This document shows, piece by piece, positions 1 to 58,480 of a stretch of 64,000 nucleotides of DNA. The position numbers and the translations under genes are program-made. Position 1 is the stretch's first letter; every line of letters starts with the position of its first letter. This stretch comes from Firmicutes bacterium UBA2203 (lineage in GTDB: Bacteria; Bacillota; Desulfotomaculia; Desulfotomaculales; Nap2-2B): the NCBI GenBank assembly GCA_002327235.1, contig DCUX01000004.1:28020-92019 (forward strand), in the 5' to 3' direction. The notes beneath the pieces were generated by a model. The model made no database searches. It was not told the DNA's origin and was given only the letters and a program-made list of their open reading frames with translations.

Positions 1-24
1 AATATTTAATCAGGAGTAAGTGCT

Positions 25-543
25 TTGTCAAGGAAAAAGATATTTTTAACCGAAGAGAAAATAAAGCGCCGGGTAGAACAATTAGCCCAAGAGATTTCTT
101 TAGCTTATCTTGACCAGGAGGTAATGGTAGTCGGCGTTTTAAAAGGGGCCTTTATTTTTATGGCTGACTTGGTGCGCGGCCTGACTATCCCGGTTAAGAT
201 TGATTTTGTTGCCCTCTCAAGTTATGGTTTTTCCAGTCAATCTTCCGGAGTGGTGCAAATTATAAAGGATATAGGGCAAAGTATAACCAATAAACAGGTC
301 CTTATTATTGAAGATATAGTGGATACGGGCCTTACCTTGCACTATTTAAAAGAGCGTTTTCTGTCCCGGGAGCCAAAAGAAGTAAAAATTTGCACCTTGT
401 TGGACAAGCCGGCGCGCCGTGAAGTGCCGTTAAAGGCAGATTATGTGGGTTTTATAGTGCCCGACGCGTTTTTGGTTGGTTATGGATTAGATTATCAGGA
501 AAAATACCGCCATCTGAGGGATATTTTTATAATTGAGATATAA
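25..543 (+). CDS. hpt: hypoxanthine phosphoribosyltransferase
   Basis: 172-aa ORF with a TTG start and AGGAG at 12-16. It has the PRPP-binding loop VLIIEDIVDTGLTL and is collinear with bacterial Hpt. Confidence 0.9.
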   Translation: MSRKKIFLTEEKIKRRVEQLAQEISLAYLDQEVMVVGVLKGAFIFMADLVRGLTIPVKIDFVALSSYGFSSQSSGVVQIIKDIGQSITNKQVLIIEDIVDTGLTLHYLKERFLSREPKEVKICTLLDKPARREVPLKADYVGFIVPDAFLVGYGLDYQEKYRHLRDIFIIEI

Positions 544-570
544 ATTAAAAGTAAGAGGAAAGAGGCAGGC

Positions 571-2112
571 ATGACCGTACCCAGTCAGGAATTAGTAATA
601 GTGTTGGATTTTGGCGGACAGTACAGTCACCTTATTGCCCGGCGAATCCGGGAGGGCAAAGTTTTTTGTGAAATGCTCCCCTATAATACCCCGTTAGGCG
701 AGCTCAGCGCTAAAAACCCCCGCGGTATTATTTTATCGGGCGGGCCGGCTAGTGTTTATCAACCAGGGGCTCCGGTATGCGACCCGCAACTTTATGATTT
801 GGGGATACCAATTTTAGGAATTTGTTACGGCATGCAGCTTATGAGTGTACAATTAGGGGGGGCAGTAGTTTCAGCCGAATATCGTGAGTATGGAAAAACA
901 GCCCTGGAAATTTTGGAACCAGACATTTTGTTTCAAAGCATGGATTCTTCGCAAGTGTGCTGGATGAGCCATGGCGACCGGGTAGAAGAACCGCCTCCGG
1001 GATGGAATATTTTAGCCCAAACCGCCTTTTCAAAGGTAGCCGCTATAGCCCACCGGGAAAAAAAACTATACGCGGTCCAGTTCCACCCGGAAGTAAAACA
1101 TACGCCCCAGGGACAGGAGATACTGCAAAATTTTCTTTATGATGTATGTGGTTGTAGAGGTTTATGGACCATGCGCTCTTTTATTGATCACGCGGCCGCG
1201 GAAATTTTAGCTCAGGTTGGTCAAGGAAAGGTAATTTGCGCTTTAAGCGGGGGAGTGGATTCTACCGTAACGGCCTTGCTGCTTCACCGGGCTATAGGTT
1301 ACCAGTGTACCAGTATTTTTGTTAATCATGGCCTGTTAAGAAAAGGGGAAGCGGAACAGGTAATCGAAACTTTTAAAGAGCAATTTCACCTTAATCTGGT
1401 GTATATCGAAGCCAAAGATCGTTTTTTAAGCCGCCTATCTGGAATTACCGATCCTGAACAAAAAAGAAAGATTATTGGGGAAGAATTTATTTGTGTTTTT
1501 GAAGAAAAAGCCGCCAAATTAGGAAAGGTGGATTTTTTGGCCCAGGGAACTCTTTACCCGGACGTAATAGAAAGCGGTACCGCGACGGCGGCCATGATTA
1601 AATCACACCACAATGTGGGAGGTTTGCCGGCAATAATGAACTTGCGGCTTATTGAACCCTTACGCTGGCTCTTTAAAGATGAGGTCCGGGTTTTAGGAGC
1701 GGAATTAGGGTTGCCGGAGGAAATAGTTTGGCGCCAACCCTTTCCTGGGCCTGGTTTAGCCGTGCGGATACTGGGGGAGGCAACCGCCGAAAAAATAGCC
1801 CTCCTTCAAGAGGCTGATGCTATTATAAACGAAGAAATCCAACGCGCCGGGCTCAATCGGGAAGTGTGGCAATCATTTGCTGTTTTACCTGATATACGCA
1901 GTGTAGGGGTTATGGGGGATGAACGTACTTATTTCCATACCGTAGCTGTACGGGTGGTGCAAAGTCTTGACGGTATGACAGCTGATTGGGTCAGGTTGCC
2001 TTACCATGTATTGGAGCGTATTTCTAGCCGGATTGTTAACGAGGTGGCCGGAATTAACCGGGTGGTTTATGATATTACTTCTAAGCCCCCGGCTACTATT
2101 GAATGGGAGTAA
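571..2112 (+). CDS. guaA: GMP synthase (glutamine-hydrolysing)
   Basis: 513 aa. N-terminal class I amidotransferase (GICYGMQ, FHPE), ATP-pyrophosphatase P-loop SGGVDS, and the typical C-terminus PPATIEWE. Confidence 0.95.
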
Positions 2113-2119
2113 TAAGACC

Positions 2120-2240
2120 GGTTAGAGGTTGGAAGTTAGAGGTTAGGGTTTTAAATCCAGTTGGAGGTTAGAAGTTGGAGGTTTTGGAAATTGGAAGAGG
2201 GTTTTAGATCCAATTTCTAACTACTAATTTCCAATTTCAA
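2120..2240 (+). repeat. family A heptad-arm hairpin repeat, double unit (two G-rich arms, loops TTTTAAATCC and TTTTAGATCC, one pyrimidine arm)
   Basis: Direct reading. GGTTAGA/GGTTGGA heptads are followed by the loop and then AATTTCY heptads. The unit fills the guaA-purE spacer and ends at the purE SD. Confidence 0.85.
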
Positions 2241-2257
2241 GAGGGTGAGGGTGTATT

Positions 2258-2779
2258 ATGTTGCGTCCGATAGTGGGAATAGTTATGGGCAGCGATTCTG
2301 ATTTACCTGTAATGTGTAAGGCCTGGGAGATTATAAACGAGTTTGATATTCCCAGCGAAATAAGTATTATCTCCGCTCACCGTTCGCTGGAAAAAGCTAT
2401 TGCTTATGCAGGCAGCGCGGTAGACCGGGGTTTACTAGTAATTATAGCGGGCGCTGGAGGAGCGGCTCATTTGCCAGGAGTTATTGCCGCCCGTACGCCT
2501 TTACCTGTTATTGGGGTGCCAATTAAAAATAGCTCTTTAAATGGTTTAGATGCTTTATTTTCAATGGTACAAATGCCTGCCGGTGTTCCGGTGGCTACCG
2601 TAGCCATCAACGGAGCAAAAAATGCCGCTATTTTAGCGGCTCAAATTATCGGGGTTAGTGAGCCGGCCGTAAGGACTAAAATAGAAAATTATAAGGCTAA
2701 GCTGGCCAGGGAGGTAGAGTCTAAAGCAGAACGATTAACCAAATTGGGGGTAGAAGGTTATTTGGAGGTTAGAGATTAG
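2258..2779 (+). CDS. purE: N5-carboxyaminoimidazole ribonucleotide mutase
   Basis: 173 aa with the motifs GSDSDLPVM and AGGAAHLPGV. Confidence 0.93.
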   Translation: MLRPIVGIVMGSDSDLPVMCKAWEIINEFDIPSEISIISAHRSLEKAIAYAGSAVDRGLLVIIAGAGGAAHLPGVIAARTPLPVIGVPIKNSSLNGLDALFSMVQMPAGVPVATVAINGAKNAAILAAQIIGVSEPAVRTKIENYKAKLAREVESKAERLTKLGVEGYLEVRD

Positions 2780-2830
2780 AGGTTGGAGGTTAGAGGTTTT
2801 AAATCCAACTTCCAACTTCCAACTTCCAAC
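2763..2830 (+). repeat. family A hairpin repeat (5' arm overlaps the last purE codons)
   Basis: 2781-2798 pairs with 2807-2824 over 18 positions (1 mismatch, 3 G-U). The loop is TTAAATCC. The 3' arm abuts the purB SD AGGAGG. Confidence 0.85.
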
Positions 2831-2845
2831 AGGAGGTAAAGGCAG

Positions 2846-4138
2846 ATGATTGAGCGTTACACTTTGCCGGAAATGAAAAAAATCTGGTCTTTAGAAAACA
2901 GGTTTCGCAAATGGCTGGAAATAGAAATATTCGCTACTGAGGCTATGTCAAAGCTGGGTTTAGTTCCGGAAGAGGCCTTAATGCAAATAAAGGAACGGGC
3001 TAACTTTGAGGTGGCGCGGATTGAAGAAATAGAAGCGGTAGTTAACCATGACGTTATCGCCTTTTTAACTAACGTAGGCGAATACGTTGGCGAGGCAGCA
3101 AAATATCTGCATTTGGGCTTAACCTCATCCGATATTTTAGATACTACTTTGGCTGTTCAAATGAAGGAAGCCGGAGAACAAATTCTAAAACGGCTGAAGG
3201 AATTAAGGGCCGTTCTTTTAAAATTGGCCCAACAGCACCGGCAAACAATAATGATAGGGCGTACCCATGGTGTTCATGCGGAACCGATTACTTTTGGTTT
3301 AAAAATGCTTTTATGGTTAGCGGAAACAGAACGGAACCTGGAAAGAATGCAGCGGGCCGTGGAAACTATCAGGGTGGGCAAAATTTCTGGCGCGGTTGGT
3401 ACTTACGCTAATATTAACCCACAGGTAGAAATTCACGTTTGCAACCAACTAGGTTTAAGGCCCAGCCGTCTATCCACTCAGGTTCTGCAACGCGACCGCC
3501 ACGCTGAATACTTAACTACTCTTGGAATTATCGGCAGCTCCCTGGACAAATTTGCGGTAGAAATACGTAATTTGCAACGCACCGAACTGATGGAAGTGGA
3601 AGAATATTTTGCTAAGGGACAAAAGGGTTCTTCGGCTATGCCGCATAAACGTAACCCTATTACGGCTGAAAGAATAAGTGGTCTTGCTCGCCTACTGCGA
3701 AGCAACGCTTTGGCGGCTATGGAAAATATGGCTTTATGGCACGAACGTGATATTTCCCATTCTTCAGTAGAACGGGTAATTATTCCTGACAGTACCATTG
3801 GGCTTGATTATATGTTGCATAAATTTACCTTAATCATGAAAAACTTACAGGTTTATCCTGAAAATATGCGCCGCAACCTGGAGCTTACCTGCGGCGTAAT
3901 TTTTTCCCAGCGGGTTTTGCTAGCCTTAGTGGAAAAAGGTTTAAGCCGGGAACAGGCATACGCTATTACGCAGGATAACGCCTTTCGCAGTTGGCAGGAG
4001 AAAAAAGATTTTTACACGCTTATTAAAAACGATCCTCAAATTACCGCTTACCTAACAACTGAGGAAATAGAAAATTTATTTGAGATTAACTATTATCTGC
4101 GTTATGTAGACGAAATTTACCGGCGTTTTGGCTTATAG
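2846..4138 (+). CDS. purB: adenylosuccinate lyase
   Basis: 430 aa with the fumarate-lyase signature GSSAMPHKRNP. Confidence 0.95.
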   Translation: MIERYTLPEMKKIWSLENRFRKWLEIEIFATEAMSKLGLVPEEALMQIKERANFEVARIEEIEAVVNHDVIAFLTNVGEYVGEAAKYLHLGLTSSDILDTTLAVQMKEAGEQILKRLKELRAVLLKLAQQHRQTIMIGRTHGVHAEPITFGLKMLLWLAETERNLERMQRAVETIRVGKISGAVGTYANINPQVEIHVCNQLGLRPSRLSTQVLQRDRHAEYLTTLGIIGSSLDKFAVEIRNLQRTELMEVEEYFAKGQKGSSAMPHKRNPITAERISGLARLLRSNALAAMENMALWHERDISHSSVERVIIPDSTIGLDYMLHKFTLIMKNLQVYPENMRRNLELTCGVIFSQRVLLALVEKGLSREQAYAITQDNAFRSWQEKKDFYTLIKNDPQITAYLTTEEIENLFEINYYLRYVDEIYRRFGL

Positions 4139-4145
4139 AAAATTT

Positions 4146-4282
4146 GTTACTATTTAGGTAGGCACATAGGTTCAAAGGCACAAAGGTCTAAAGTGAAATG
4201 AAAACGTATAGAGACCTATAAGTCTGGCAAAAAAACTTTGTGCCTCTGTGCCTTTGCCCCTTTGAACCTGAGTAGTTATAAG
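4146..4282. repeat. family B intergenic inverted-repeat element (full-length copy)
   Basis: Termini are GTTACTATTTAGGTAG ... CCTTTGAACCTGAGTAGTTATAAG. The arms are built from GGCACAAAG / CTTTGTGCC octamer-like words. Related copies lie at 29596-29645 and 58481-58730. Confidence 0.8.
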
Positions 4283-4337
4283 ACTTTAGAGATATAGAGC
4301 GTTAAATAGCTCCGGCTTTATTCAGGGGGGAGATATA

Positions 4338-5759
4338 ATGATGGAGGGGAGAAAGCCGCGGGAAGAATGCGGAGTTTTTGGTATCTACGGGCCAGGTTTG
4401 AACGTAGCCCGGCTTACCTATTATGGTATTTTTGCCCTGCAGCACCGGGGCCAGGAAAGTGCGGGAATCGCCATTTTAGATGGTGACAAGATACACGTCC
4501 AAAAAGGAATGGGATTGGTTTCTGAAGTTTTTGAGAACAGCGACTTAGATAAGCTGCAAGGCAGGGCAGCAATTGGTCACGTACGTTATTCCACCACGGG
4601 GGCAAGTCAATTGGTGAATGCCCAACCTTTAGTGTTCCGGTATGCCGGGGGAATGTTGGGCTTAGCTCATAACGGAAATATTACCAATACCCGTGAGTTA
4701 TACCATAGATTAACTTCAAGCGGGGCCATATTTCAGTCTACCACGGATAGTGAAATAATTGTAAATTTACTTGCTCGTTACAGTCAGGCTAGCCTTAGCA
4801 TGGAAGAAGCTGTAATCAGGTGTATGCAAGATTTAGAAGGAGCTTATTCGCTAGTAATTCTTACGGAAAAGAGTTTATTTGCCGTGCGTGATGCTTACGG
4901 TTTTCGTCCTTTGTGTCTAGGTGTTTTGAATGGTAATTATATAGTGGCTTCTGAGTCTTGCGCTTTAGATATAATAGGAGCAAGTTTTCTTCGTGATGTA
5001 ACCCCGGGGGAAATAATCACTATTAATGAATACGGCCTGAATTCTGTCCAGGGCGTAAGTTGCCGGCGGAGGGCCCATTGTATTTTTGAATACATTTACT
5101 TTGCCCGGCCCGACAGTAATATAGATGGTTTTAACGTTAAGCGGGTGCGCCGGGAAATGGGGCGGCGCCTGGCGCAAGAATACCCGGTAAAAGTTGACTT
5201 AGTAATTCCTGTGCCTGATTCCGGTACTTCGGCGGCTTTGGGGTATGCAGAAGCCTCAGGCATTTCTTTTGAGGAAGGATTAATGAAAAATCGTTACGTA
5301 GGCCGTACTTTTATCCAGCCCTGTCAGGAAATGCGTGATATAGGGGTGAGGCTAAAATTAAACCCCGTCCGGGAGTTGCTAGCCGGCAAGCGGATAGTAT
5401 TGATAGATGACTCTTTAGTTCGGGGGACAACCAGTAAAAAGATTGTAAGCATGTTGCGAGAATGCAGCGTGAGAGAAATTCACCTATGTCTTAGCTCCCC
5501 CCCTGTTGTTCACGCCTGTTATTATGGTATAGACACCTCGAACGAGAAAGAACTGCTTGCGGCTCAAATGTCTCTAGAAGAAATTAGACAACGAATTACC
5601 GTAGATGGCTTACATTACTTGAGCTTAAATTCTCTGCTGGATATATTTAATGGCAAAAAAGACAGTTTTTGTACCGCCTGTTATTCAGGTGATTATCCGG
5701 TAGCCGTAGAAAATACCGGTGTTGATAGTATTGATAGTCTTAAAAAATTAGAATTTTAA
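4338..5759 (+). CDS. purF: amidophosphoribosyltransferase
   Basis: 473 aa. Short propeptide then the nucleophile Cys (EECGVFGI), PRTase motif VLIDDSLVRGTT, and C-terminal Cys cluster. Confidence 0.95.
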   Translation: MMEGRKPREECGVFGIYGPGLNVARLTYYGIFALQHRGQESAGIAILDGDKIHVQKGMGLVSEVFENSDLDKLQGRAAIGHVRYSTTGASQLVNAQPLVFRYAGGMLGLAHNGNITNTRELYHRLTSSGAIFQSTTDSEIIVNLLARYSQASLSMEEAVIRCMQDLEGAYSLVILTEKSLFAVRDAYGFRPLCLGVLNGNYIVASESCALDIIGASFLRDVTPGEIITINEYGLNSVQGVSCRRRAHCIFEYIYFARPDSNIDGFNVKRVRREMGRRLAQEYPVKVDLVIPVPDSGTSAALGYAEASGISFEEGLMKNRYVGRTFIQPCQEMRDIGVRLKLNPVRELLAGKRIVLIDDSLVRGTTSKKIVSMLRECSVREIHLCLSSPPVVHACYYGIDTSNEKELLAAQMSLEEIRQRITVDGLHYLSLNSLLDIFNGKKDSFCTACYSGDYPVAVENTGVDSIDSLKKLEF

Positions 5760-5772
5760 GGAGGGGGAGGGG

Positions 5773-5806
5773 ACGCTTCTGTTGACCGCGCGGTCAACAG
5801 AAGCGT
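5773..5806. promoter_or_regulatory. perfect 34-nt palindrome between an SD-like GGAGG tract and the purM start codon
   Basis: ACGCTTCTGTTGACCGCG|CGCGGTCAACAGAAGCGT, with every position paired. GGAGG occurs at 5760-5764 and 5766-5770, and the ATG is at 5816. Confidence 0.8.
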
Positions 5807-5815
5807 ATTCATTAA

Positions 5816-6856
5816 ATGAAAAAAGGTTTAATCTACGCCCATAGCGGGGTAGATATTGACGCGGGCAACCAGGCCGTTAATTTAATCCGGCCAATCGCCC
5901 AAAGCACTTTTCGTCCCGAAGTTTTAAGTAATTTGGGTGGATTTAGCGGATTGTTTGCTTTAGACCCTGCCCGTTACCAAAAACCAGTTTTAGTAGCCAG
6001 TACTGATGGAGTAGGTACTAAATTAAAAGTGGCCGTTTTAATGAACCATCATAGCTCTATTGGCATTGATGCGGTGGCTATGTGTGTTAACGACATCTTG
6101 GTTCAAGGAGCGGAACCCTTATTTTTTTTGGATTATCTGGCGGTGGGAAAACTAGTTCCGGAAAAAGTAGCCACAATTGTAGCTGGAGTAGCCGAAGGCT
6201 GCCGGCAAGCAGGATGTGCTTTACTCGGGGGAGAAACGGCGGAAATGCCGGGTATTTATTCTCCTGAGGAATACGACCTGGCCGGCTTTGTGGTTGGCGT
6301 AGTAGAGCAGGCTAAAATTATAAACGGCTCGGGGATTAAACCGGGGAACCAAGTAATTGGTCTTCCCTCTTCTGGTCTACATAGCAACGGTTATTCCTTG
6401 GCCCGTAAGGTACTGCTGGAGGTGGCCGGCTATCAGGTGGATACCTGCCATCCTGCCTTGGGAAGGACGGTCGGAGAAGAAATGTTGGTTCCCACCCGGA
6501 TATATGTTCCTCTAGTGCTGTCTTTACTAGAAAAGACTAATTTTAATATTTTAGGCATGGTAAATATTACGGGAGGAGCTTTACGGGAAAATATCCCGCG
6601 TATTTTACCACCGGGATGTACGGTTGTCTTAAAAAAACAATCCTGGCCTATTCCCCCTATTTTTTCTTTAATCCAGGAAATTGGCCGGATTAAAGAAGCA
6701 GAAATGCAAAGAGTATTTAATCTGGGCCTTGGTTTTCTTTTAATTGTTCCTGGTGAGGAAGCACCATCCTTGTTAAGTTATTTTACCAAGCAAAAAGAAA
6801 AGGCTTATTTGGTGGGGGAAGTAATATCCGGCCACGGGGAAGTAGTATTTGTTTAG
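5816..6856 (+). CDS. purM: phosphoribosylformylglycinamidine cyclo-ligase (AIR synthetase)
   Basis: 346 aa with the motifs GVDIDAGN and DGVGTK. An in-frame stop at 5813-5815 fixes the start. Confidence 0.94.
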
Positions 6857-6926
6857 AGGTTAGGGGTTAGGGGTTAGAGGTTAGGATTTTAAATCCAATT
6901 TCCAACTTCCAATTTCCAACTTCCAA
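6853..6926 (+). repeat. family A hairpin repeat
   Basis: GGTTAGG/GGTTAGA heptads, loop TTTTAAATCC, then AATTTCC/AACTTCC heptads. It ends at the purN SD. Confidence 0.85.
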
Positions 6927-6939
6927 AAGGAGGTAGAGT

Positions 6940-7548
6940 ATGTCTTGCTTGCGTCTTGGTGTTTTAGTTTCCGGGAGGGGCTCAAATCTGCAGGCAATCA
7001 TAGATGCCGGCCAAAAAGGTGAAATACCGGCTGAGGTGGTAGTGGTAATCAGTGATCAACCTGATGCTTTTGCCCTGACCAGAGCCCGCGCTAATAATAT
7101 CCCGGCTATTTACGTTAACTTTCAAGATTTTCCTAATAAAGAAAAGTACGAAGAAAAAGTAGCGGCTATTCTACAAGCACATAAAGTAGAGTTAGTTTGT
7201 TTGGCCGGATACATGCGCATTTTAGGGGCAAGCATGTTAGAAGCTTTCCCTAACCGGATTATGAACATTCACCCGGCTTTGCTGCCTGCTTTTCCTGGAT
7301 TGCATGCCCAGGCCCGGGCCTGGGAGCACGGGGTTCGTTTTAGCGGTTGTACGGTGCATTTTGTTGATGAAGGGGTGGATACCGGACCTATTATTTTGCA
7401 GGCAGTTGTACCGGTGCTGGTGGAAGATACGGCCGAAACACTGGCGGCGCGAATTTTAGAACAAGAACATAAAATTTACCCGGCCGCCATTAGACTGTTT
7501 GCCCAAAATCGTTTACGTATTCAAAGGAGAAAAGTATACCTTAAGTAG
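6940..7548 (+). CDS. purN: phosphoribosylglycinamide formyltransferase
   Basis: 202 aa with SGRGSNLQA and the formyltransferase motif NIHPALLP. Confidence 0.93.
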   Translation: MSCLRLGVLVSGRGSNLQAIIDAGQKGEIPAEVVVVISDQPDAFALTRARANNIPAIYVNFQDFPNKEKYEEKVAAILQAHKVELVCLAGYMRILGASMLEAFPNRIMNIHPALLPAFPGLHAQARAWEHGVRFSGCTVHFVDEGVDTGPIILQAVVPVLVEDTAETLAARILEQEHKIYPAAIRLFAQNRLRIQRRKVYLK

Positions 7549-7596
7549 AGGTTGGAAGTTAGAGGTTAGAGTTTTAAATCCAATTTCCAACTTCCA
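7547..7596 (+). repeat. family A hairpin repeat
   Basis: GAGGTTGGAAGTTAGAGGTTAGAG - TTTTAAATCC - AATTTCCAACTTCC. Confidence 0.85.
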
Positions 7597-7598
7597 GA

Positions 7599-7835
7599 GT
7601 GATGGGAGTGACCATGATGGTTAAACTTACCGTTAGTTTAGCATACGCACTTAAAGAAAATTTTTATTGTTCCCAATGCCGTACCTGGATTTATTGTCCG
7701 GAAATGAACGAAAAATTAAAGGATGAACAGGGTAATATAATTGAAAAAATTGGTACCGGGTGTTTACAACAGGATGACGAAGGGGAATATTTTAAGTGCC
7801 CGGGCTGCCAAACCCGTTTTTATCTAACTGACTAG
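7599..7835 (+). CDS. small zinc-ribbon-like protein (CxxC ... CxxC), function unknown
   Basis: 78-aa ORF. ATG 7614 or 7617 after GGGAG is a more likely start. It has two CxxC pairs (CSQC, CPGC) and is preceded by a family A hairpin, like the pur genes. Confidence 0.55.
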   Translation: MMGVTMMVKLTVSLAYALKENFYCSQCRTWIYCPEMNEKLKDEQGNIIEKIGTGCLQQDDEGEYFKCPGCQTRFYLTD

Positions 7836-7857
7836 GCGCTAAAGAGACATTTAGCTC

Positions 7858-7942
7858 GAAATTGGAAAATGGATGTTGGACTTTATGTTGGAATTTACCT
7901 TTCAGGCAAAACCCTTCTCATTCCAATTTCCAACTTCCAATT
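7858..7942. repeat. family A-related hairpin between convergent genes (possible bidirectional terminator)
   Basis: The 5' arm GAAATTGGAAAATGGATGTTGGA...GTTGGAATTT and the 3' arm CATTCCAATTTCCAACTTCCAATT flank a different loop from the other copies. It abuts the phoU stop. Confidence 0.6.
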
Positions 7943-8606
7943 AGTTAAGCTCTCTTTTTTCGCCAGTGATTAAAAAAATTACTTCCTCACCAATATTGGT
8001 AGCGTGATCAGCGATTCTTTCCAGATAACGACTGATTAATAAAAAATAAACGGCCGGAATTACAATTTGGGGCTGGGTCTTTTCCCGCATTGCCCGTATA
8101 GCCTCTTGAAATATTTTAGCGGAAATAAAATCGACCTCATCATCTAAAGAACACATTTCGCGTGCTCTTTGGGCATCATTATTAACATAAGCGTCTAGAG
8201 CCTCCTTGATCATTTGTTGGACTACCCGGCTCATTTTGGAGGTATATTCCATAAGTTGTCTGTTCAAGGGATAGCCGTAAATGTAAAGGGTAGCCCGGGC
8301 AATGTCAACGGCGTAATCGGCCATTCGTTCTAAACTGACCAGAAATTTAAGGCTGGTAATAGACAGGCGTAAATCATGAGCTATTGGCTGTTGGGTAGCG
8401 ATTAACTTTACGCATTTATCTTCGATTTCCTGCGCTAATTTATCAATTAAAACATCACCAGAAATTATTTGGTTTGCCCCTGCTGCGTCTTGCTGCAGTA
8501 AAAATTGAACGGCCCTATAAATAGTCTCTTCCGTTAAACTGGCCAGCCGTAAAATGTCCTGCTGTAAATCAGTTAATTCTTGTTCAAAAGTACTACGGGC
8601 CCGCAT
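7941..8606 (-). CDS. phoU: phosphate signalling complex protein PhoU
   Basis: 221 aa. Two PhoU repeats, each with an E-R-x-x-D motif (ERMADYAVDIA, ERIADHATNI). AGGAGG lies upstream. Confidence 0.9.
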   Translation of the reverse strand: MRARSTFEQELTDLQQDILRLASLTEETIYRAVQFLLQQDAAGANQIISGDVLIDKLAQEIEDKCVKLIATQQPIAHDLRLSITSLKFLVSLERMADYAVDIARATLYIYGYPLNRQLMEYTSKMSRVVQQMIKEALDAYVNNDAQRAREMCSLDDEVDFISAKIFQEAIRAMREKTQPQIVIPAVYFLLISRYLERIADHATNIGEEVIFLITGEKRELN

Positions 8607-8623
8607 AAATATTTTGCCTCCTG

Positions 8624-8673
8624 AAAAAAACTTTAAAGGTGAGAGATATAGTTAATTAAAGTTAATCTCACCT
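8624..8673 (-). terminator. phoR-phoU intercistronic hairpin followed by a U-run (partial terminator/attenuator)
   Basis: 8637-8644 pairs perfectly with 8666-8673. On the minus strand TTTAAAGTTTTTTT follows the stem. Confidence 0.4.
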
Positions 8674-8681
8674 CAAATATC

Positions 8682-10055
8682 TCACATCTCACTTCTCACT
8701 TCGGCCGGTAAGGTAACCTTAAAGGAACTTCCCTGGTTAGGTATGCTCTCCGCTTTAATACTCCCTCCATGGGCCTTAATGATGTGTTTAACAATAGCTA
8801 AGCCTACGCCAATTCCACCCAGTTCCCGGGCTCTGGCCTTTTCTACCCGGTAAAAGCGTTCAAAGACACGGGGCAGGTCCTCAGGCGGGATGCCAATACC
8901 GGTATCCTTTACCTCTACCTGAACATTATCTCTATAGGTTGTGGCCCGGATTAAAACTTGCCCGCCAGGAAGAGTGTATTTTATTGAATTATCTACTAAA
9001 TTTGTTAATACCTGGGCTAATAAATCGGGATCACCAGATATGGAAGGCAACTCAACCGGTATTTCTACCGTTAAAGTTAAAGATTTTTGTTGGGCCTGGG
9101 GTTGAAACGTAACGGCTACCTGGTTAATGATTTCTTTTAACTGCACCAACTGCCACCGATGAACAACCCTTCTTTCTTCTATCTTAGAAAGATGTAATAG
9201 CTCGTCAATAAGTTTTGCCAGCCGGTTGGTTTCTTGGCTCATGATTTCTAAGCTCCGGTGAGCGGCGGCGGGGTCATCTATGGCTCCCTCGCGCAAGGTT
9301 TCTAAAAAACCGCTAATTGAAGTAAGAGGGGTGCGTAACTCGTGTGAAACATTAGCCACAAACTCAGTGCGCATTTGATCCAGTTTTTTTTCTTTAGTAA
9401 TGTTTCTTAGCAAGAGTACAATTCCTTCTTTTTCTTGTTCTTGATTTTTTAAGGGAGTGGCCTTAAGATAATAAAAATTGGGTTCGGGGTAAATAAGTTG
9501 AAATTCTTGCGTTATTGGCCTTTCACTTTTTAAAGCCTGTTTTACGGCTCTTTCTAAGTCGTAATTGCGGATGAGGTTCAGGATATTTTTGCCTAGATAG
9601 GCTTCCCGGGTAACGCCCAAAAAATTTTCTACCGCTGAATTAAGCAGAAGAACATTACCCTGGTTATCAAGTGCAACTACCCCTTCCGTCATACTGTTTA
9701 AGATAGTCTGCATGCGGTTTTTTTCGGCGGTAATCTGGGCTAGGATTTTTTTTTGTTGCCGCACTAAATCATTTATGTTTTGAGCCAACTGGCTAACTTC
9801 TTTTTGTTCGTAAAGGGGTAATTCCTGGTTTAAATTTCCTTGACTGATCGCTTTGGTAACCGTATTTATTTTTTTCAACGGAGAAATAACTTGTTTAAAA
9901 AATATCCACCCTAAGCCCAAGGCGAAGATAAACGATGTCAGCAAGGCCCAACCTAGATTAAGGTGATAAAAAAAATAAAATTGTAAAATGGCTAAAAAAA
10001 TTAGAAGAATAAAAAAATAATTAATAATTGCCCGCCAGATATTGTTTTTAATCAT
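8682..10055 (-). CDS. phoR: phosphate-sensing histidine kinase PhoR-like
   Basis: 457 aa. Two N-terminal TM helices, a PAS region, H-box SHELRTPLTS and a HATPase domain. It is adjacent to phoP and phoU. Confidence 0.85.
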   Translation of the reverse strand: MIKNNIWRAIINYFFILLIFLAILQFYFFYHLNLGWALLTSFIFALGLGWIFFKQVISPLKKINTVTKAISQGNLNQELPLYEQKEVSQLAQNINDLVRQQKKILAQITAEKNRMQTILNSMTEGVVALDNQGNVLLLNSAVENFLGVTREAYLGKNILNLIRNYDLERAVKQALKSERPITQEFQLIYPEPNFYYLKATPLKNQEQEKEGIVLLLRNITKEKKLDQMRTEFVANVSHELRTPLTSISGFLETLREGAIDDPAAAHRSLEIMSQETNRLAKLIDELLHLSKIEERRVVHRWQLVQLKEIINQVAVTFQPQAQQKSLTLTVEIPVELPSISGDPDLLAQVLTNLVDNSIKYTLPGGQVLIRATTYRDNVQVEVKDTGIGIPPEDLPRVFERFYRVEKARARELGGIGVGLAIVKHIIKAHGGSIKAESIPNQGSSFKVTLPAEVRSEM

Positions 10056-10817: not shown

Positions 10818-10855
10818 CTTTGGTAGGGGCGTATGGCTATACGCCCCTACCAAAG
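10818..10855. repeat. family C palindrome (CTTTGGTAGGGGCGTAT-GGCT-ATACGCCCCTACCAAAG)
   Basis: Perfect 17-bp stem with a 4-nt loop, and no U-tract downstream on either transcribed strand. The GGGGCGTAT...ATACGCCCC core recurs at 56726-56757 and 58535-58564. Confidence 0.85.
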
Positions 10856-10877: not shown

Positions 10878-13031
10878 TTAAGTTAACCTTTGGCTTAAGT
10901 TAGTATATCTTTCTTTTACCTTGTTATTTTTTATAGCTATCGCTAGCGCTTTAGGCGAACCAATTAAAACCATTAACTTTTTGGCCCGGGTAATGGCCGT
11001 ATAAAGGAGATTACGCTGCAGCATTATATAGTGTTGGGTTAGGAGGGGCATAATAACTGCGGCGTATTCACTGCCCTGGGATTTATGAACCGAAATAGCG
11101 TAGGCTAGGGTCAACTCCTCCATTTCGTGATTGCTGTATGTTGCCTTCTGGGTATCAAAAGCCACGGTTATTTCTTGTTCTTCCGGGTCAATTTTTACCA
11201 CGCGCCCTATATCGCCGTTAAAAACCTCTTTTTCGTAGTTATTTTTAGTTTGCATTACTTTATCGTCAATGCAAAAAACTTTGCTTCCATAGGTAATTTC
11301 CTGGCGCCGCGGATTAAGCAAGGTCTGTAATTCCCGGTTTAGATTAGCCACCCCCGTAATTCCCTTATGCGTTGGGCTTAAAACTTGAATATCTTCCTTA
11401 GGGTTAAAACCAAAGGATCGAGGTATTTTTTGCCGGCATAAAATTTTTATTGTTTCTAAAACTCTTTCCGGCTCCTCTTCTTGGATGAAATAAAAATCCC
11501 TTTGTTTTTGTTTTGTCTTTAAAGCAGGATATAAACCCTGATTAACCCGGTGAGCATTTAAGATAATTAAACTTTCTTGGGCCTGGCGGTAAATATCTTT
11601 TAAAAAAACCACCTCTATTTTTTCGGACTTAATAATATCCCTTAAAACATTACCGGGCCCAACGGAAGGAAGCTGGTCTGCATCTCCCACTAAAACTAAA
11701 CCGGCTTTCGGAGGGATTGATTTTAACAAATGATGCATTAAGACAAGGTCAATCATGGAAGCCTCATCAACAATAATTAAATCTCCTTCCAAAGGACGTT
11801 CTTCATTTCTTTTCCAGGCCTTTTCCTTAGGGCTGTATTCCAGGAGACGGTGGATGGTCTTAGCTTCCTTGCCGGTAACCTGAGAAAGTTTCTTAGCCGC
11901 CCTGCCGGTTGGTGAGGCTAAGATTATTTGCTGCCCCTTTTTGGCTAATATTTCAATTAAACTGGCCACCAACGTTGTTTTTCCGGTCCCTGGCCCCCCA
12001 GTTATCACCAACAATTTAGCTTTAATGGCTTTTCTTAAAGCTTCCCTTTGTTTTTCGGCCAGAATTATTTTATTTATTTTTTGCACCCAAAGTAAAGCCT
12101 TCTCCAGGTCAATAGATAAGGGGGGTTTGGGGGTTATATTTAGTTTTTTCAGTTTTTGGGCCACGCTTACTTCCGCCAGGTAAAAGGGTTTAAGGTAAAT
12201 TACCTGGACACCGCTAATCAATTCAGCCACAACCTCCCCTTTTGCTACTAGCGAGGCTATTGCTTCCCGGCTTATTTCGGCTTCAATTCCTAATTCTGCC
12301 TCTGTTTTTTTTAATAGTTCCGGAACGGGAACATATACGTGTCCCTCTTCAGCGTACTGGTGCAGCGTATAAATTAATCCTGCTTGTGCCCGTAAGGGTG
12401 AATTTAAGGCAAAACCAAAATTTTGGGCTATTTTATCGGCCGTTTTAAAGCCAATCCCGTTAATATCCAAAGCCAGGCGGTAAGGATTTTCCTTCATAAT
12501 CGAAATAGCCTGTTCCCGGTAGGCCTTATATATTTTTACGGCGTAGGCGGAACTAATATTATTATTGTATAAAAAGAGCATTACTTCCTTAATTTCCTTT
12601 TGTTCGGTCCAGGCGTCAGTAATACTTTTTAAGCGGGTTGGACCAATTCCTTCTACTTTTAACAGGCTTTCCGCTTCATTTTCAATAATATCCAGGGCCT
12701 TATCCCCGAACTGGTTAATAATCCGCCTGGCCATAATTGGGCCTATGCCTTTAATTAAACCAGAACCTAAGTACTTTTCTATACCGGTTATGGTGGCCGG
12801 AAGTAGGGACAGACAGCTTTCTACCTGAAATTCTTCCCCAAATTTTTTATTCCTTATCCATTTTCCCTTTAACTGCAAAGTTTGCCCCGGATTAAGGGCA
12901 AATAAGTTTCCGACTATAGTAATAAGGTCTTTGTGTGCCCTATTTTTAAGTTTAGCCACGGTAAAATTGCTTTCGGGATCAAAATATACAATTCTTTCTA
13001 GAATACCTTCCAGGGAAATTTGGTCAAGCAC
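10878..13031 (-). CDS. recD2: RecD2-type SF1B DNA helicase (RecD/TraA family)
   Basis: 717 aa with Walker A GGPGTGKTT, DEASM and the C-terminal ISVHKSQGSE. GTG start. Confidence 0.9.
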   Translation of the reverse strand: MLDQISLEGILERIVYFDPESNFTVAKLKNRAHKDLITIVGNLFALNPGQTLQLKGKWIRNKKFGEEFQVESCLSLLPATITGIEKYLGSGLIKGIGPIMARRIINQFGDKALDIIENEAESLLKVEGIGPTRLKSITDAWTEQKEIKEVMLFLYNNNISSAYAVKIYKAYREQAISIMKENPYRLALDINGIGFKTADKIAQNFGFALNSPLRAQAGLIYTLHQYAEEGHVYVPVPELLKKTEAELGIEAEISREAIASLVAKGEVVAELISGVQVIYLKPFYLAEVSVAQKLKKLNITPKPPLSIDLEKALLWVQKINKIILAEKQREALRKAIKAKLLVITGGPGTGKTTLVASLIEILAKKGQQIILASPTGRAAKKLSQVTGKEAKTIHRLLEYSPKEKAWKRNEERPLEGDLIIVDEASMIDLVLMHHLLKSIPPKAGLVLVGDADQLPSVGPGNVLRDIIKSEKIEVVFLKDIYRQAQESLIILNAHRVNQGLYPALKTKQKQRDFYFIQEEEPERVLETIKILCRQKIPRSFGFNPKEDIQVLSPTHKGITGVANLNRELQTLLNPRRQEITYGSKVFCIDDKVMQTKNNYEKEVFNGDIGRVVKIDPEEQEITVAFDTQKATYSNHEMEELTLAYAISVHKSQGSEYAAVIMPLLTQHYIMLQRNLLYTAITRAKKLMVLIGSPKALAIAIKNNKVKERYTNLSQRLT

Positions 13032-13120
13032 TAAAAGCGCCCTTTCTAATGGCCTTTAAAATAAGCATAACATAACCTCCCTCTTTCTTACAAGTAAAAA
13101 ATAAGCTAGGGTCAATAGGC

Positions 13121-13176
13121 AAAATCTTAACAAAATCTTAACAAAATCTTAACAAAATCTTAACAAAATCTTAACA
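13121..13176 (+). promoter_or_regulatory. array of five phased PhoP-type Pho boxes (11-mer AAAATCTTAAC x5)
   Basis: TTAACA occurs at 13127, 13138, 13149, 13160 and 13171, an exact 11-bp period. TAAAAT lies at 13186-13191 and pstC starts at 13216. Confidence 0.75.
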
Positions 13177-13215
13177 ATAGTTTGTTAAAATTGAAAAAGT
13201 AAAGAAGGTGGGAAA

Positions 13216-14247
13216 ATGAATCATTTGGATTCGGTCCCGGTAAAAGAAGAAGAGGTAAAAGTAATAGTTAACCCCAAGGTTTTTTTAGTCTCCCGGCAAT
13301 CCGTAAAAGAATTTTTAATTGAAAAGGGATTATTTCTTTTTACCATTTTAAGCAGTATCTTGATCTTTTTTGTTTTTATCTTTGTGGCTAAAGAAGCCTG
13401 GCCGGTACTTAAGGCAAATGGCCTAGCCTTTGTATATACCGGCGGTTGGGACCAGGATTTTTACCGGGCCTGGGTGGCTACCGCTAAAGAGCCGAGCTGG
13501 CGTTTTGGAGCTCTACCTTTAATTAGCGGCACTATATTTACCACCTTAGGCGCGCTTTGTTTTACCGTTCCTTTAGGTTTAGGATGCGCCATTTTTTTAG
13601 TCGAAGTTTGTCCGCCCTGGTTCTTTAAGCCCGTGGAATCAACGGTGCGTTTACTGTCGGCCATCCCTTCCGTAATTTATGGTCTAGTTGGCTTACTGGT
13701 GGTGGTGCCTTGGATTGACAGGCATTTAGTTACTAATGAAATGGCTTTAAGAATGGCCAAAGTGGCGGCTTTAGACGGCACCAGCCTGTTAGCCGGCATT
13801 TTAGTATTGGGGATGATGATTGTGCCAATTTTCGTGGCTTTGGCCGCCGATGCCCTGCGGGTGGTGCCGAAAGTTTACAAAGAGGGTTCTTTAGCCCTGG
13901 GTGTTTCCCACTGGCGGACAATTATTAAAATTATGCTGCCGGGGGCCAAAAAAGGCATTATTGCGGGGGCCATTTTAGCCACGGGACGGGCTATTGGGGA
14001 AGCTATTGCTCTTTCCATGGTTAGCGGCAGTGTGGCGAATATTCCTAACCCGGGCCACGGCCTGGTATTTTTCTTAGAACCTTTACGCACCTTAGCTTCC
14101 ACGGTGGTGGATAATGCAGAAGGAATGGGGGTCCCCACCTGCGAGTCGGCTCTTTTTGCCTGCGGAGCTTTTCTTTTGGTTTCTTGCGTAATCTTAAGCT
14201 TCTTTGCCCGTTGGGTGGCGCGCACTCAAAAACAAGGAGGTAGCTAA
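13216..14247 (+). CDS. pstC: phosphate ABC transporter permease PstC
   Basis: 343-aa multi-TM protein with the permease loop GRAIGEAIALSMVSG. It is followed by pstA and pstB. Confidence 0.9.
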   Translation: MNHLDSVPVKEEEVKVIVNPKVFLVSRQSVKEFLIEKGLFLFTILSSILIFFVFIFVAKEAWPVLKANGLAFVYTGGWDQDFYRAWVATAKEPSWRFGALPLISGTIFTTLGALCFTVPLGLGCAIFLVEVCPPWFFKPVESTVRLLSAIPSVIYGLVGLLVVVPWIDRHLVTNEMALRMAKVAALDGTSLLAGILVLGMMIVPIFVALAADALRVVPKVYKEGSLALGVSHWRTIIKIMLPGAKKGIIAGAILATGRAIGEAIALSMVSGSVANIPNPGHGLVFFLEPLRTLASTVVDNAEGMGVPTCESALFACGAFLLVSCVILSFFARWVARTQKQGGS

Positions 14248-14310
14248 GCAATAAAAAATAAAGAAAATTTACTTGGATTTTCCGCCTGTTGGTTTTCAGG
14301 AATTATCATT

Positions 14311-15174
14311 TTGGTGGTTTGCTTTGCCATCGTTATCTATTTATTTATTAAAGGAATAGGGGCCATAGATTGGGCTTTTCTTACCCAGGACCCTCAACCC
14401 AGCTTAAGGGAGGAATTAAGCGGAGGCATTCTGGCCCCAATGGTTGGCACTATTTTACTTACGGCCGTGGGAATAATAGTTGCTTTTCCATGGGCCTTAG
14501 CTACTGCTACTTACCTGGCTGAATACGCGGAAGATAATTTTTTCTTTGGGGCCCTGCGCCTTGGGATAGATGTTTTAGCCGGGGTTCCTACTATTGTTTA
14601 CGCTATTTTTGGCTTGGCTATTTTTTCTTTACCGGAATTAGCTTTTTTTAGTTCTATGGTAGAAGGGGTAGCGGAAGGAAAGGCTTTTGGCCGGAGCTTT
14701 CTGGTAAGCGGGATTACTATGGCCGTAATGGTTCTTCCTTTTGTAATTAAGTCCTGCGAAGAAGCTATTAAAGCAGTTCCGCAAACTTTCCGCGAGGCAG
14801 CCTTTGCCTTGGGAGTAAGCAAATGGCGGACCATTAGCCGGGTAATTTTACCGGCTGCCCGGCCGGGTATTATTACCGGAACCATTCTGGGCATAGGTCG
14901 TATTGCCGGCGATACCGCTATTGTTTGGTTGTGTTTGGGCGGAAGTATGAATCTTACCGGTCCGCAGCCCTGGTGGTATCCTCAAAACTGGGGAGCTACT
15001 TTACAAAATGCCGGCAGTACCTTGACCACTTTTATTTATTATTCTTCACCGGCCGGAGAGGGCAATTCCCCTAATAAAGCTTTTGGGGCGGGATTAGTTT
15101 TAATCATTATTATTTTAATACTCAACACTTTAGTGGATTATATAGGTAGTATTGGTAAACTGAAGGAGGAATAA
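14311..15174 (+). CDS. pstA: phosphate ABC transporter permease PstA
   Basis: 287-aa multi-TM protein with GIGRIAGDTAIV. The frame is open back to 14248 and GGAGG lies at 14236-14240, so the true N-terminus may lie upstream with a non-canonical start. Confidence 0.88.
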   Translation: MVVCFAIVIYLFIKGIGAIDWAFLTQDPQPSLREELSGGILAPMVGTILLTAVGIIVAFPWALATATYLAEYAEDNFFFGALRLGIDVLAGVPTIVYAIFGLAIFSLPELAFFSSMVEGVAEGKAFGRSFLVSGITMAVMVLPFVIKSCEEAIKAVPQTFREAAFALGVSKWRTISRVILPAARPGIITGTILGIGRIAGDTAIVWLCLGGSMNLTGPQPWWYPQNWGATLQNAGSTLTTFIYYSSPAGEGNSPNKAFGAGLVLIIIILILNTLVDYIGSIGKLKEE

Positions 15175-15178
15175 GACC

Positions 15179-15955
15179 TTGCTAAATACGGTTAACGGAA
15201 AAACCAAGCTCCATGCCCGGGAACTTAGCGCCTGGTATGGCAGAACGCCGGCCTTAAAAAAGGTAAGCGTGACTATTCCCGCTAACTCAATTGTAGGTTT
15301 AATTGGTCCTTCCGGCTGCGGTAAAAGTACTTTTTTACGCTGCTTAAACCGGATGAATGATTTAATTCGCTCTTTTAAGCTGGAAGGAAAAATAACGCTT
15401 GACGAAAAGGACATTTACGCCCCCGATACCGATATTGTTTTAATCCGGCGCAAGGTAGGGATGGTTTTTCAACAACCAAACCCTTTTCCCATGTCTGTTT
15501 TTGATAACGTAGCCTTTGGGGTTAGGGAACATAACCGGGGCGTCAACGGCAAAAAACTTGAAAATATAGTAGTTAACAGCTTGAAGCAGGCCAACCTTTG
15601 GGATGAAGTGAAAGATAAACTGCCCCAATCAGGCTTAAGTTTATCCGGGGGGCAGCAGCAAAGGCTTTGTATTGCCCGTCTTTTGGCGGTGAAGCCAGAG
15701 GTTATTCTTTTAGATGAACCCTGTTCCGCCTTAGACCCGCTTTCCACGGGAAAAATTGAAGAATTGTTGTTAGAATTAAAAAAGTCTTATACCATTGTTG
15801 TGGTTACGCATAATTTGGGCCAGGCCTTCCGGATTTCAGACTATATTGGTTTTTTTCTCCTTGGACAACTGGTTGAATTTGGCCCGGCGGCGGAACTGGC
15901 CGTTAAACCAAAAGAAAAGGTAACGGCTGACTACATTTCCGGACACTTTGGTTAA
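15179..15955 (+). CDS. pstB: phosphate ABC transporter ATP-binding protein PstB
   Basis: 258 aa with Walker A GPSGCGKST, signature LSGGQQQRL and Walker B ILLDEP. Confidence 0.95.
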   Translation: MLNTVNGKTKLHARELSAWYGRTPALKKVSVTIPANSIVGLIGPSGCGKSTFLRCLNRMNDLIRSFKLEGKITLDEKDIYAPDTDIVLIRRKVGMVFQQPNPFPMSVFDNVAFGVREHNRGVNGKKLENIVVNSLKQANLWDEVKDKLPQSGLSLSGGQQQRLCIARLLAVKPEVILLDEPCSALDPLSTGKIEELLLELKKSYTIVVVTHNLGQAFRISDYIGFFLLGQLVEFGPAAELAVKPKEKVTADYISGHFG

Positions 15956-38826: not shown

Positions 38827-39043
38827 TTTGAAAAGTAAAAGTAGTTGTAAAAATATTTTTGGTACTTACCACTAGAAATTGCTTTAATTATTGCTTTGGT
38901 TACTATAAAAAGAAGTGATTTAATAAAGTATAAGAAGTATAAATTGTCCGTTATTATTATTGTTAAAATATAAATCATTTATTATAATTAAAACAAGTAA
39001 AAATATAAAATATATTTGCTGTATAAAATTAATAAATTAAATA

Positions 39044-39369: not shown

Positions 39370-39396
39370 CAAAAAAACCGGGGATGATGGTAAAGT

Positions 39397-40551: not shown

Positions 40552-40563
40552 CTGAGGAAAAAA

Positions 40564-40601
40564 CACCAGTAGGGGCGTTAAATTTAACGCCCCTACTGGT
40601 G
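40564..40601. terminator. perfect 38-nt palindrome between convergent cobT and fbp (family C variant)
   Basis: CACCAGTAGGGGCGTTAAA|TTTAACGCCCCTACTGGTG. On the minus strand TTTTTTCCTC follows, which is good for terminating fbp. Confidence 0.8.
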
Positions 40602-40624
40602 TATCTACTTAACTAACAAACTAA

Positions 40625-58453: not shown

Positions 58454-58480
58454 GGGCGTACGGCACTCAATAAACAAAAC

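Follow-up and report, generated by a model that had tools for sequence, protein, structure and literature searches.

The window analysed here, 64,000 nt of contig DCUX01000004.1 (positions 28,020 to 92,019) of Firmicutes bacterium UBA2203, opens with a co-directional hpt-guaA-pur gene cluster, and junctions between its genes carry hairpins whose arms are tandem 7-nt repeats (heptads). We consider it probable that these hairpin units are young, lineage-restricted, locally copied and slippage-prone small palindromic repeats, each with a TTTTAAATCC core set between inverted heptamer arrays. A conserved purine regulator seems unlikely, as comparison with related loci points to recent, fast-changing insertions confined to this lineage and one close relative. 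An earlier note, made from the letters of the window, had proposed an operon-specific RNA element; the feature that it described is real and its sequence description is largely accurate, but its functional reading was over-stated.

The family comprises four canonical units (in the guaA-purE, purE-purB, purM-purN and purN-orf gaps), one half unit, and an older, related hairpin between the last small open reading frame (ORF) of the cluster and phoU, which we call site 5 (Table 1). Read 5′ to 3′, a canonical unit consists of three to five RGTTRGR heptads, a 10-nt core and 2.5-5 TCCAAYT heptads; the orientation of all units is constant and they always stand at a junction of stop codon and Shine-Dalgarno sequence (SD), the 3′ arms stopping 0-7 nt short of the SD of the next gene. 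Tandem Repeats Finder (TRF) located period-7 arrays of 3.1-4.9 copies at eight places (2120-2150, 2209-2238, 2765-2798, 2804-2830, 6853-6885, 6894-6926, 7546-7571 and 7921-7942). The heptad-dimer pattern GGTTAGAGGTTAGA, with up to 3 mismatches allowed, matched 19 times against an expectation of 6.1, a count reached in none of 100 shuffles, and 17 of the 19 matches fall within 2120-7577; among the 35 window gaps of at least 30 nt, strong lag-7 periodicity (identity 15-20 of 21) is found in four pur gaps only. The loop TTTTAAATCC is exact at 2149, 2797, 6887 and 7572, and a one-base variant, TTTTAGATCC, stands at 2202. In unit 2, the stretch 2781-2798 pairs with 2807-2824 over 18 positions, of which 3 are G.U pairs and 1 is an A.C mismatch. 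Thus the earlier note was right about the period-7 arrays at the sites that it named, the near-invariant loop, this exact pairing, the closing of the 3′ arms before the SDs and the presence of GGAGG strings in the 5′ arms. Its description of six units of one architecture holds for the four canonical units; unit 1a has no 3′ arm and site 5 is distinct.

A covariance model was trained on four window units and two units of the close relative L043, and was searched with filters off. It gave 65.4 bits for unit 1b (2183-2232, a sequence that was in the training set), whose 3′ arm is degenerate (TCCAATT TCTAACT ACTAATT TCCAATT), a partial match to unit 1a (2141-2162, E 0.011) and only 18.5 bits (E 0.06) for site 5. 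Site 5 is a separate, older hairpin that has only the heptad type in common with the units; it is probably a bidirectional 3′-end structure. The units are the same in six independent assemblies of the strain and so are not assembly artefacts.

The stems, at approximately 37-40% G+C, have a UAG every 7 nt in the 5′ arm. Because 7 and 3 share no factor, a TAG stop occurs in every frame within 21 nt of array; the 5′ arms hold stop codons in two to three of the three plus-strand frames and the 3′ arms of units 2-4 hold none. A hairpin with a purine-rich 5′ arm reads alike on both strands, and for this reason orientation is set by the loop and the TAG-bearing arm only; the order with the purine-rich arm first was rejected as an orientation signal. 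A G-quadruplex reading of unit 3 (GGTTAGGGGTTAGGGG) was likewise set aside, as the other units have no G-runs.

The evidence that carries our interpretation comes from relatives. We compared the window with pur loci from eleven relatives, taking L043 and L044, its duplicate, as a single relative. By PurE and PurN searches, the window belongs to an uncultured clade of Peptococcaceae, of which 'Peptococcaceae bacterium SCADC1_2_3' is a member. Ten of these loci (L045, L046, L053, L054, L056, L058, L059, L061, L062 and L063; 78-92% protein identity, and 89-92% DNA identity where measured, in L045, L054, L056 and L059) have no hairpin at purE-purB or purM-purN. Wherever the region is covered in them, the junctions are short, 19 nt between purE and purB and 11-17 nt between purM and purN, and each comprises a stop codon, a few further bases and an SD identical to that of the window (AGGAGGTAAAGG or AAGGAGG); at purE-purB, 4 nt separate the stop from the SD. 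The covariance model found no match with E < 0.4 in the ten, except for unit 4 in L058. Apart from that unit, the sole relative with units is L043/L044, at 94% PurE identity and 93.6% DNA identity. This presence/absence comparison places the gain of the units after the split from the hairpin-free relatives, whose DNA is approximately 90-92% identical.

Filled and empty alleles can be compared base by base. The exact empty site at purM-purN, GTTTA/AAGGAGG, is kept in L061, L054, L056 and L059, and unit 3 is a clean insertion of approximately 72 nt at this junction, with the purM stop changed from TAA in relatives to TAG in the window (6854-6856, inside the first heptad). At purE-purB and purN-orf the ancestral sequence has instead been replaced, by units 2 and 4 respectively. 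The 5′ arm of unit 2 overlaps the last five purE codons, which are translated heptads, together with the TAG stop (2777-2779), so that PurE ends in ...GVEGY-LEVRD in the window and in -SGLETGS or -LNHKTGN in relatives. PurN ends in ...KVYLK in the window compared with ...KVYLKPGPA in relatives, a loss of 4-5 codons, and its TAG stop (7546-7548) is where the 5′ arm of unit 4 starts. In these two cases the array overwrote the last 4-7 codons of the gene before it. In all three genes, purE, purM and purN, the TAG stop falls within a GGTTAGA-type heptad.

The units are also related to one another. Identical blocks of 24 nt are shared by the 5′ arms of units 1a and 4, of 25 nt by the loop and 3′ arm of units 3 and 4, and of 21 nt by the 3′ arms of unit 3 and site 5. 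These blocks, together with the common loop, exclude an independent origin and imply copying or homogenisation among neighbouring junctions. An in-situ birth at each junction, by slippage expansion of local SD-like sequence (GGAGGT...) and then fold-back copying with no transfer between sites, could draw on the resemblance of the heptads to SD-proximal sequence (AGGAGGTAAAGG compared with GGAGGTTAGAGG), on the standing of heptamer slippage as a recognised process (PMC4679880, PMC4692102) and on a heptad array that has arisen de novo in L063. We nevertheless regard it as very improbable, because convergence cannot explain the same 10-nt loop in four units and identical blocks of 24-25 nt, and the exact empty site with its clean insertion at purM-purN also speaks against it.

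Within the two lineages that have units, heptad numbers differ. The guaA-purE gap is 201 nt in L043 and 145 nt in the window; its 5′ array has 12 heptads in L043, eight more than in the window, facing a 3′ arm of only about four, and unit 1a has no partner arm at all, so that the arms are unbalanced. In unit 2, L043 has one heptad fewer in the left arm, one more in the right arm and a loop one T shorter. Heptad numbers shift fast and independently in the two arms, as expected of replication slippage. L058 has a full-scoring unit 4, the same as that of the window. It lies in a window-like tract of approximately 270 nt (about 7385-7655) that runs from the end of purN through unit 4 into the small ORF, and on both flanks of which L058 is the same as L056. 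Either co-occurring strains have recombined here or the assembly is a mosaic of strains.

Table 1. Hairpin units, other palindromes and genes of the cluster (positions in the window).
Feature	Positions	Strand	Description
Unit 1a (guaA-purE gap)	2120-2158	+	Four heptads GGTTAGA GGTTGGA AGTTAGA GGTTAGG, then loop TTTTAAATCC; without its own 3′ arm
Unit 1b	2159-2240	+	Second array AGTTGGA GGTTAGA AGTTGGA ..., loop TTTTAGATCC; runs up to the purE SD
Unit 2 (purE-purB)	2763-2830	+	Loop 2797-2806; 3′ arm (TCCAACT)x3.9 abuts purB SD AGGAGG at 2831
Unit 3 (purM-purN)	6851-6926	+	Five 5′ heptads, loop 6887-6896, ~4.7 3′ heptads to purN SD
Unit 4 (purN-orf)	7546-7597	+	Loop 7572-7581, then ~2.5 3′ heptads
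Site 5 (convergent small ORF/phoU)	7858-7942		Heptads TTGGAAN / TCCAAYT; distinct 41-nt central part
HK-phoU gap hairpin	8607-8702	-	On the gene strand AGTGAGA AGTGAGA TGTGAGA ..., loop, pyrimidine arm ...TCTCTCACC, SD (RGTGAGA heptads)
purB-purF gap element	4150-4290	+	Different family (AGGCACA type); long hairpin, 8-nt-period arms AGGCACAA / TTGTGCCT, end ...TGAACCTGAGTAGTTA
Second, diverged AGGCACA-type copy	58478-58730	-	Contains two other, nested palindromes; fold of the gap -112 kcal/mol
purF-purM palindrome	5773-5806	+	Perfect, 17+17; gap 5760-5815; outside the heptad family
hpt	25-543	+	First gene of the co-directional cluster opening the window
guaA	571-2112	+	pur cluster
purE	2258-2779	+	pur cluster
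purB	2846-4138	+	pur cluster
purF	4338-5759	+	pur cluster
purM	5816-6856	+	pur cluster
purN	6940-7548	+	pur cluster
Small CxxC ORF	7613-7835	+	Last ORF of the pur cluster

Both strands of each site were folded against 200 dinucleotide shuffles. The plus-strand z-scores at the five sites were -4.0, -3.1, -2.0, -3.4 and -3.9, so that four of the five sites clearly beat chance in the comparison that the earlier note had proposed, and the purM-purN unit lies at the margin, with its fold equalled by 6 of 200 shuffles. That note had also held that the hairpins fold on one strand only, and here it was mistaken. Only the guaA-purE site prefers the plus strand (-41.4 compared with -25.5 kcal/mol over the whole gap). 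At the other four, the whole-gap energies for the plus and minus strands are -26.6/-26.3, -24.2/-20.0, -19.6/-18.7 and, at site 5, -30.3/-34.2 kcal/mol, with minus-strand z-scores of -5.1, -2.7, -5.4 and -4.3, and folds of the units by themselves agree with this picture. The arms pair as 6 bp and 1 mismatch per heptad; both strands fold alike because the arms depart from complementarity by two transitions per heptad, which leave one G.U and one A.C on either strand. RNAalifold, applied to six units, showed compensatory change at 0 of 14 pairs, which is expected of recent copies and says nothing for structure. No U-tract follows the units and none of them is among the terminator-like sites of the window, in agreement with the view that they are not canonical intrinsic terminators. 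The SD-unpaired probability predicted from the partition function varies widely, with no consistent difference between hairpin and hairpin-free alleles.

These results bear on the proposal that the units are an operon-specific cis-acting RNA element that tunes pur expression as a stabiliser, processing site or insulator, perhaps as the target of a protein that would recognise UAG triplets spaced 7 nt apart, much as HutP recognises XAG triplets. The part of this claim that stands is the confinement of the units to the pur cluster within 67 kb of the strain, in one orientation and always at a stop/SD junction; their loop is invariant in four of five units, they fold better than shuffles, and the UAG spacing of the 5′ arm equals that of the HutP sites U498/U505/U512 (PMC2425495). 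Furthermore, no purine riboswitch or other known leader RNA was found in or upstream of the hpt-guaA-pur cluster (window 1-8000, L037 1-3446, and L045), which leaves regulation of the cluster otherwise unaccounted for. Rfam gave a single gathering-level match in the window, a cobalamin riboswitch away from the pur cluster, and a permissive scan of 2000-8800 returned one chance hairpin match, at 26 bits, to a plant miRNA model whose cutoff is 60.5 bits. The part of the claim that does not stand is the strand argument, as both strands fold, and there is no covariation. Ten related pur loci have the same genes and SDs without the hairpins, heptad numbers vary and are out of balance between the arms, XAG is missing from the 3′ arm, behind which there is no terminator, no HutP-like or other RNA-binding candidate was seen among the scanned window proteins, and no consistent effect on SD accessibility is predicted. 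The same design also occurs in a non-pur operon (between phoU and the histidine kinase gene), the hairpin in the adjacent purB-purF gap is dispersed and mobile, and the gaps of this clade turn over many palindromes. On balance we think a cis-acting element of this kind unlikely; the units are probably not a purine-responsive regulator, and nothing points to purine-specific control. The cobalamin riboswitch mentioned above (39031-39381, 88.6 bits) stands upstream of a gene for a DBI_PRT (CobT-type) phosphoribosyltransferase (39487-40551).

The neighbourhood of the units is rich in other palindromes, and the earlier note's statement that its hairpin family fills every intercistronic gap is not borne out: the purB-purF (4139-4337) and purF-purM gaps hold unrelated hairpins and the hpt-guaA gap has none. 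Its companion statement, that the family is seen only in the pur cluster, is upheld for the exact family in the window and fails for the design, which recurs with RGTGAGA heptads in the gap between phoU and the histidine kinase gene (HK; phoR); these two genes and a response regulator gene (RR) come next in the window, convergent to the pur cluster. In this HK-phoU hairpin it is the third heptad that contains the TGA stop of the kinase gene (8682-8684). The hairpin is older than the pur units: a longer version is present in L045 (-37.3 kcal/mol), and it is kept in L059 and absent from L054.

In L054/L062 the purB-purF element of the window stands between guaA and purE and, in inverted orientation, between RR and recD2 (L054 5229-5360 and 13880-14130); its occurrence in different gaps, together with a second copy in the window, shows that it is mobile and dispersed. 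The same-strain k-mer contigs L037 and L038 both stop inside it, at 4248. The arms of this AGGCACA-type element vary in unit number (2 or 4), and its L063 allele is rearranged internally, apparently by an inversion, and has gained a (TTAGGAT)x4 array. The purF-purM palindrome is kept in L045 and L059 and absent in L046, L054 and L056. Site 5 is kept in L045, while other hairpins take its place in L054 and L059, the latter with (CGACGAC)x7 at this position. Even near-identical strains differ, in having 2 or 4 AAAGGCAC arm units, by 13 nt in the purN-orf gap (another AT-rich heptad hairpin) and by the newly arisen (TTAGGAT)x4 array. Fast gain, loss and resizing of repeat-armed palindromes is thus a general trait of the intergenic DNA of this clade.

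Given such a setting, the units might be a generic genome-wide repeat of the repetitive extragenic palindromic (REP) or the MITE (miniature inverted-repeat transposable element) type, present in many copies and in both orientations, with the pur cluster as just one place where several of them have landed. The neighbouring AGGCACA element does have the dispersal of a MITE, the GGGGCGTAT palindrome family has 3-4 copies in the window, relatives bear many other such families, and the heptamer-array pairs of Xanthomonas are genome-wide. Searching for the units themselves gave a different result. In the window, the filter-free covariance model found only its training units, unit 1a and site 5, with no copy in the other 56 kb, just as the earlier note had judged by eye, and no unit was found in the 3.4 kb upstream held by L037. 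Exact-pattern scans of public genome contigs (TTTTARATCCAAYTTCCAA) and metagenome contigs (TTTTARATCCAAYTTCCAAYT) returned single chance matches in unrelated taxa, although the source lineage seems to be absent from these collections. The arrays would give translated tails of no more than about 14 residues, too little for a protein search to reveal other copies. Same-strain k-mer contigs pass unbroken through units 1 and 2, in contrast to the two that break in the dispersed AGGCACA element. For the heptad family, a target duplication of at most 1 nt and a lack of copies at unrelated loci in the DNA searched do not suit a MITE; the GTAG end tag of a REP is found only at the start of unit 4 (7545-7548), units 2 and 3 having TTAG. 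The family is thus not visibly a generic high-density genome repeat, and we consider such an origin rather unlikely.

Several other sequences in this region were noted in passing. A REP-like family of perfect palindromes, (T/C)(A/G)GGGGCGTAT-N4-ATACGCCCC..., lies at gene 3′ ends (10818-10855, 56717-56766 and 58535-58564, with a variant at 40563-40602), and the same palindrome stands in the same RR-recD2 gap in L059. In L056, positions 11012-15618, between the small ORF and phoU (that is, at the position of site 5), hold an IS110-family transposase and a type II restriction-modification set (N6_N4_Mtase, RE_EcoO109I, HinfI-like). The small ORF itself (CxxC...CxxC motifs, 72-78 aa) ends the pur cluster in all relatives examined and has no Pfam match. 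Just upstream of pstC (13216), beside phoP/phoR/phoU, 5.3 perfect tandem copies of the 11-mer CAAAATCTTAA (13120-13177) place TTAACA every 11 nt, a spacing that we take to be Pho-box-like (cf. Bacillus PhoP sites); the copy number is 3 in L054, 5 in the window and L062, and 6 in L059. A Ski2-like helicase (DEAD, then Helicase_C and DSHCT) is split into overlapping ORFs (16150-16779 and 16757-18340), and the same split is found in L054 and L059.

Some of our observations weigh against the view of the units as young, locally copied repeats. Their clustering is strict, with five of five units in one orientation in one 5.5-kb operon and none in approximately 59 kb of other strain DNA, which is unlike a freely mobile repeat; this count covers the 64-kb window and the 3.4 kb upstream in L037 (approximately 67 kb of the strain). 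At the one clean insertion, unit 3, comparison of the filled and empty sites gives a target-site duplication of at most 1 nt. Pfam scans of 40 window proteins found no transposase, no RAYT (IS200/IS605-type) and no HutP, so that no mobilising enzyme is seen in the window; the ORFs scanned are housekeeping in nature (pho regulon, pst, recD2, gerA operons, dprA, topA, xerC, hslVU, codY and infC-rplT, with rpmI left out). The loop is better conserved than the arms, and this could mean that it is recognised by some factor. L058 is not accepted as proof of horizontal transfer, as its assembly may be a mosaic. Finally, the SD-accessibility calculation proved uninformative and was dropped as evidence either way, and any effect of the units at the RNA level is one that we wholly infer, from analogy with other repeats.

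In a more active role, a self-copying hairpin module would specifically colonise the stop/SD junctions of one operon: the left arm would supply stops in every frame, which would make a landing on the end of a gene harmless, the right arm an anti-SD-like pyrimidine array, and TTTTAAATCC would be the recognition site of a putative copying or binding factor. The module would pass locally from one junction to the next and end as a translation-uncoupling or mRNA-segment-stabilising device for the pur genes. If true, this would be a new way for operons to gain intercistronic control elements, seen just after birth. We hold it to be distinctly unlikely.

For the young, slippage-prone repeats of our main reading, we propose the following course of events. 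Arrays would lengthen and shorten by replication slippage, and template switching or gene conversion would carry units locally from one junction to its neighbours. They would be tolerated because the left arm ends the upstream frame (with a stop every 7 nt, in every frame) and the downstream SD stays intact; with the SD untouched and a stop in each heptad, the operon presumably keeps working. In the polycistronic mRNA, each unit would form a stem-loop of 17-38 kcal/mol with a mismatch every 7 bp. Any effect of this on the RNA would probably resemble that of REP, enterobacterial repetitive intergenic consensus (ERIC) or Correia elements, the hairpin acting as an exonuclease barrier or as a site for a double-strand RNase and so uncoupling the stability of adjacent cistrons. 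In malEFG, a REP protects the upstream cistrons from 3′ exonucleases. By the same analogy, the stabiliser and processing-site roles suggested in the earlier note are plausible as side effects.

As a regulator of purine synthesis the family is probably unimportant, for relatives manage without it. Its value lies in being a datable natural case of repeat-armed palindromes entering the junctions of an essential operon, with empty, filled, overwritten and copy-variant alleles at approximately 90-94% identity, and a simple rule (a stop codon per heptad, the SD untouched) would make such insertions harmless. There is a warning here for annotation too: the arrays alter stop codons and the C-termini of proteins, and related repeats cause breaks in short-read assemblies. 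We have no evidence of a new regulatory mechanism; what the locus offers is a neat evolutionary case with clear before and after alleles.

Comparison with known regulatory RNA gives little likeness. In the Bacillus subtilis hut operon, HutP needs two XAG-rich sites that flank a G+C-rich intrinsic terminator, and the hutP gene (PMC2425495). In the units, too, NAG triplets recur every 7 nt in the 5′ portion of the hairpin, a likeness in spacing only; their 3′ arm offers no second XAG site, a terminator is missing, and the scanned window proteins include no HutP homolog. Absence from ten related loci and 0 of 14 compensatory pairs also set them apart from conserved cis-regulatory RNAs.

The units share with REP elements and bacterial interspersed mosaic elements (BIMEs), and with ERIC and Correia elements, the form of imperfect intercistronic or 3′ palindromes that are co-transcribed, form stem-loops and are polymorphic in presence between strains; Correia elements are substrates for cleavage by RNase III, and ERIC makes an RNase E site accessible (PMC10969869), while REP is defined by a conserved GTAG or CGTC tetranucleotide at one end (PMC3733652). 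Unlike REP, ERIC and Correia elements, the units build their arms from tandem repeats and not from unique sequence, their stems are AT-rich and interrupted by a mismatch every 7 bp, and they have no target duplication. [quoted passage not shown] The units are like Chunjie in being a recent small palindromic insertion between operon genes that leaves the operon structure usable, and differ from it in their size (50-120 nt), in having no direct repeats and in being seen in this cluster only.

Bacteria have an excess of heptamer simple sequence repeats (SSRs), for which polymerase slippage has been put forward as the explanation (PMC4679880, PMC4692102). In marine Beggiatoaceae, cyanobacteria and Bacteroidetes, TAACTGA occurs as intergenic direct heptamer repeats for which a role in translation was proposed (MacGregor 2015, PMC4679880). 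Those arrays, of 2-6 units, are comparable with ours in having a fixed orientation just before start codons, in some cases overlapping the end of the upstream ORF, and a stop-bearing heptamer; they differ in being direct (one inverted pair was found), in having no hairpin or conserved loop, in replacing the SD rather than preceding it, and in numbering hundreds of copies genome-wide.

The closest published architecture is that of the convergent GGGAATC array pairs of Xanthomonas, of which there are 70-75, intergenic, near the 3′ end of the upstream ORF, variable in length and of unknown function (Rehm et al. 2015, PMC4692102), in a genus with approximately 186 arrays genome-wide; GGGAATC is the heptamer in Xanthomonas campestris/axonopodis, and GGGGAYT forms such inverted pairs in Nostoc/Anabaena (PMC4692102). 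Like these pairs, the units are tandem 7-nt repeats in convergent arrays that form a stem-loop, intergenic, mostly between co-directional ORFs, in transcribed regions, and their array length varies among close relatives (between the window and L043, by +8 in unit 1 and by -1/+1 in the arms of unit 2). Four marks of an inverted pair of heptameric SSRs are found in them, with at least three tandem copies, convergence, placement and polymorphism, and three of four arrays begin in or at the upstream stop codon. They differ from the Xanthomonas pairs in phylum and heptamer, in having a conserved 10-nt central loop, and in a heptamer that makes no clean G-quadruplex motif. Here the arrays overlap or replace stop codons and are clustered in one operon as far as seen; the Xanthomonas sites are mostly kept between species, whereas these units are absent from close relatives. 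Our findings thus extend the heptamer-repeat phenomenon of Xanthomonas, cyanobacteria and Beggiatoaceae to anaerobic spore-forming Bacillota of hydrocarbon-degrading communities. The units fit a known class of intergenic heptamer-repeat palindromes, to which they add a central core, overlap with stop codons and an apparent confinement to one operon.

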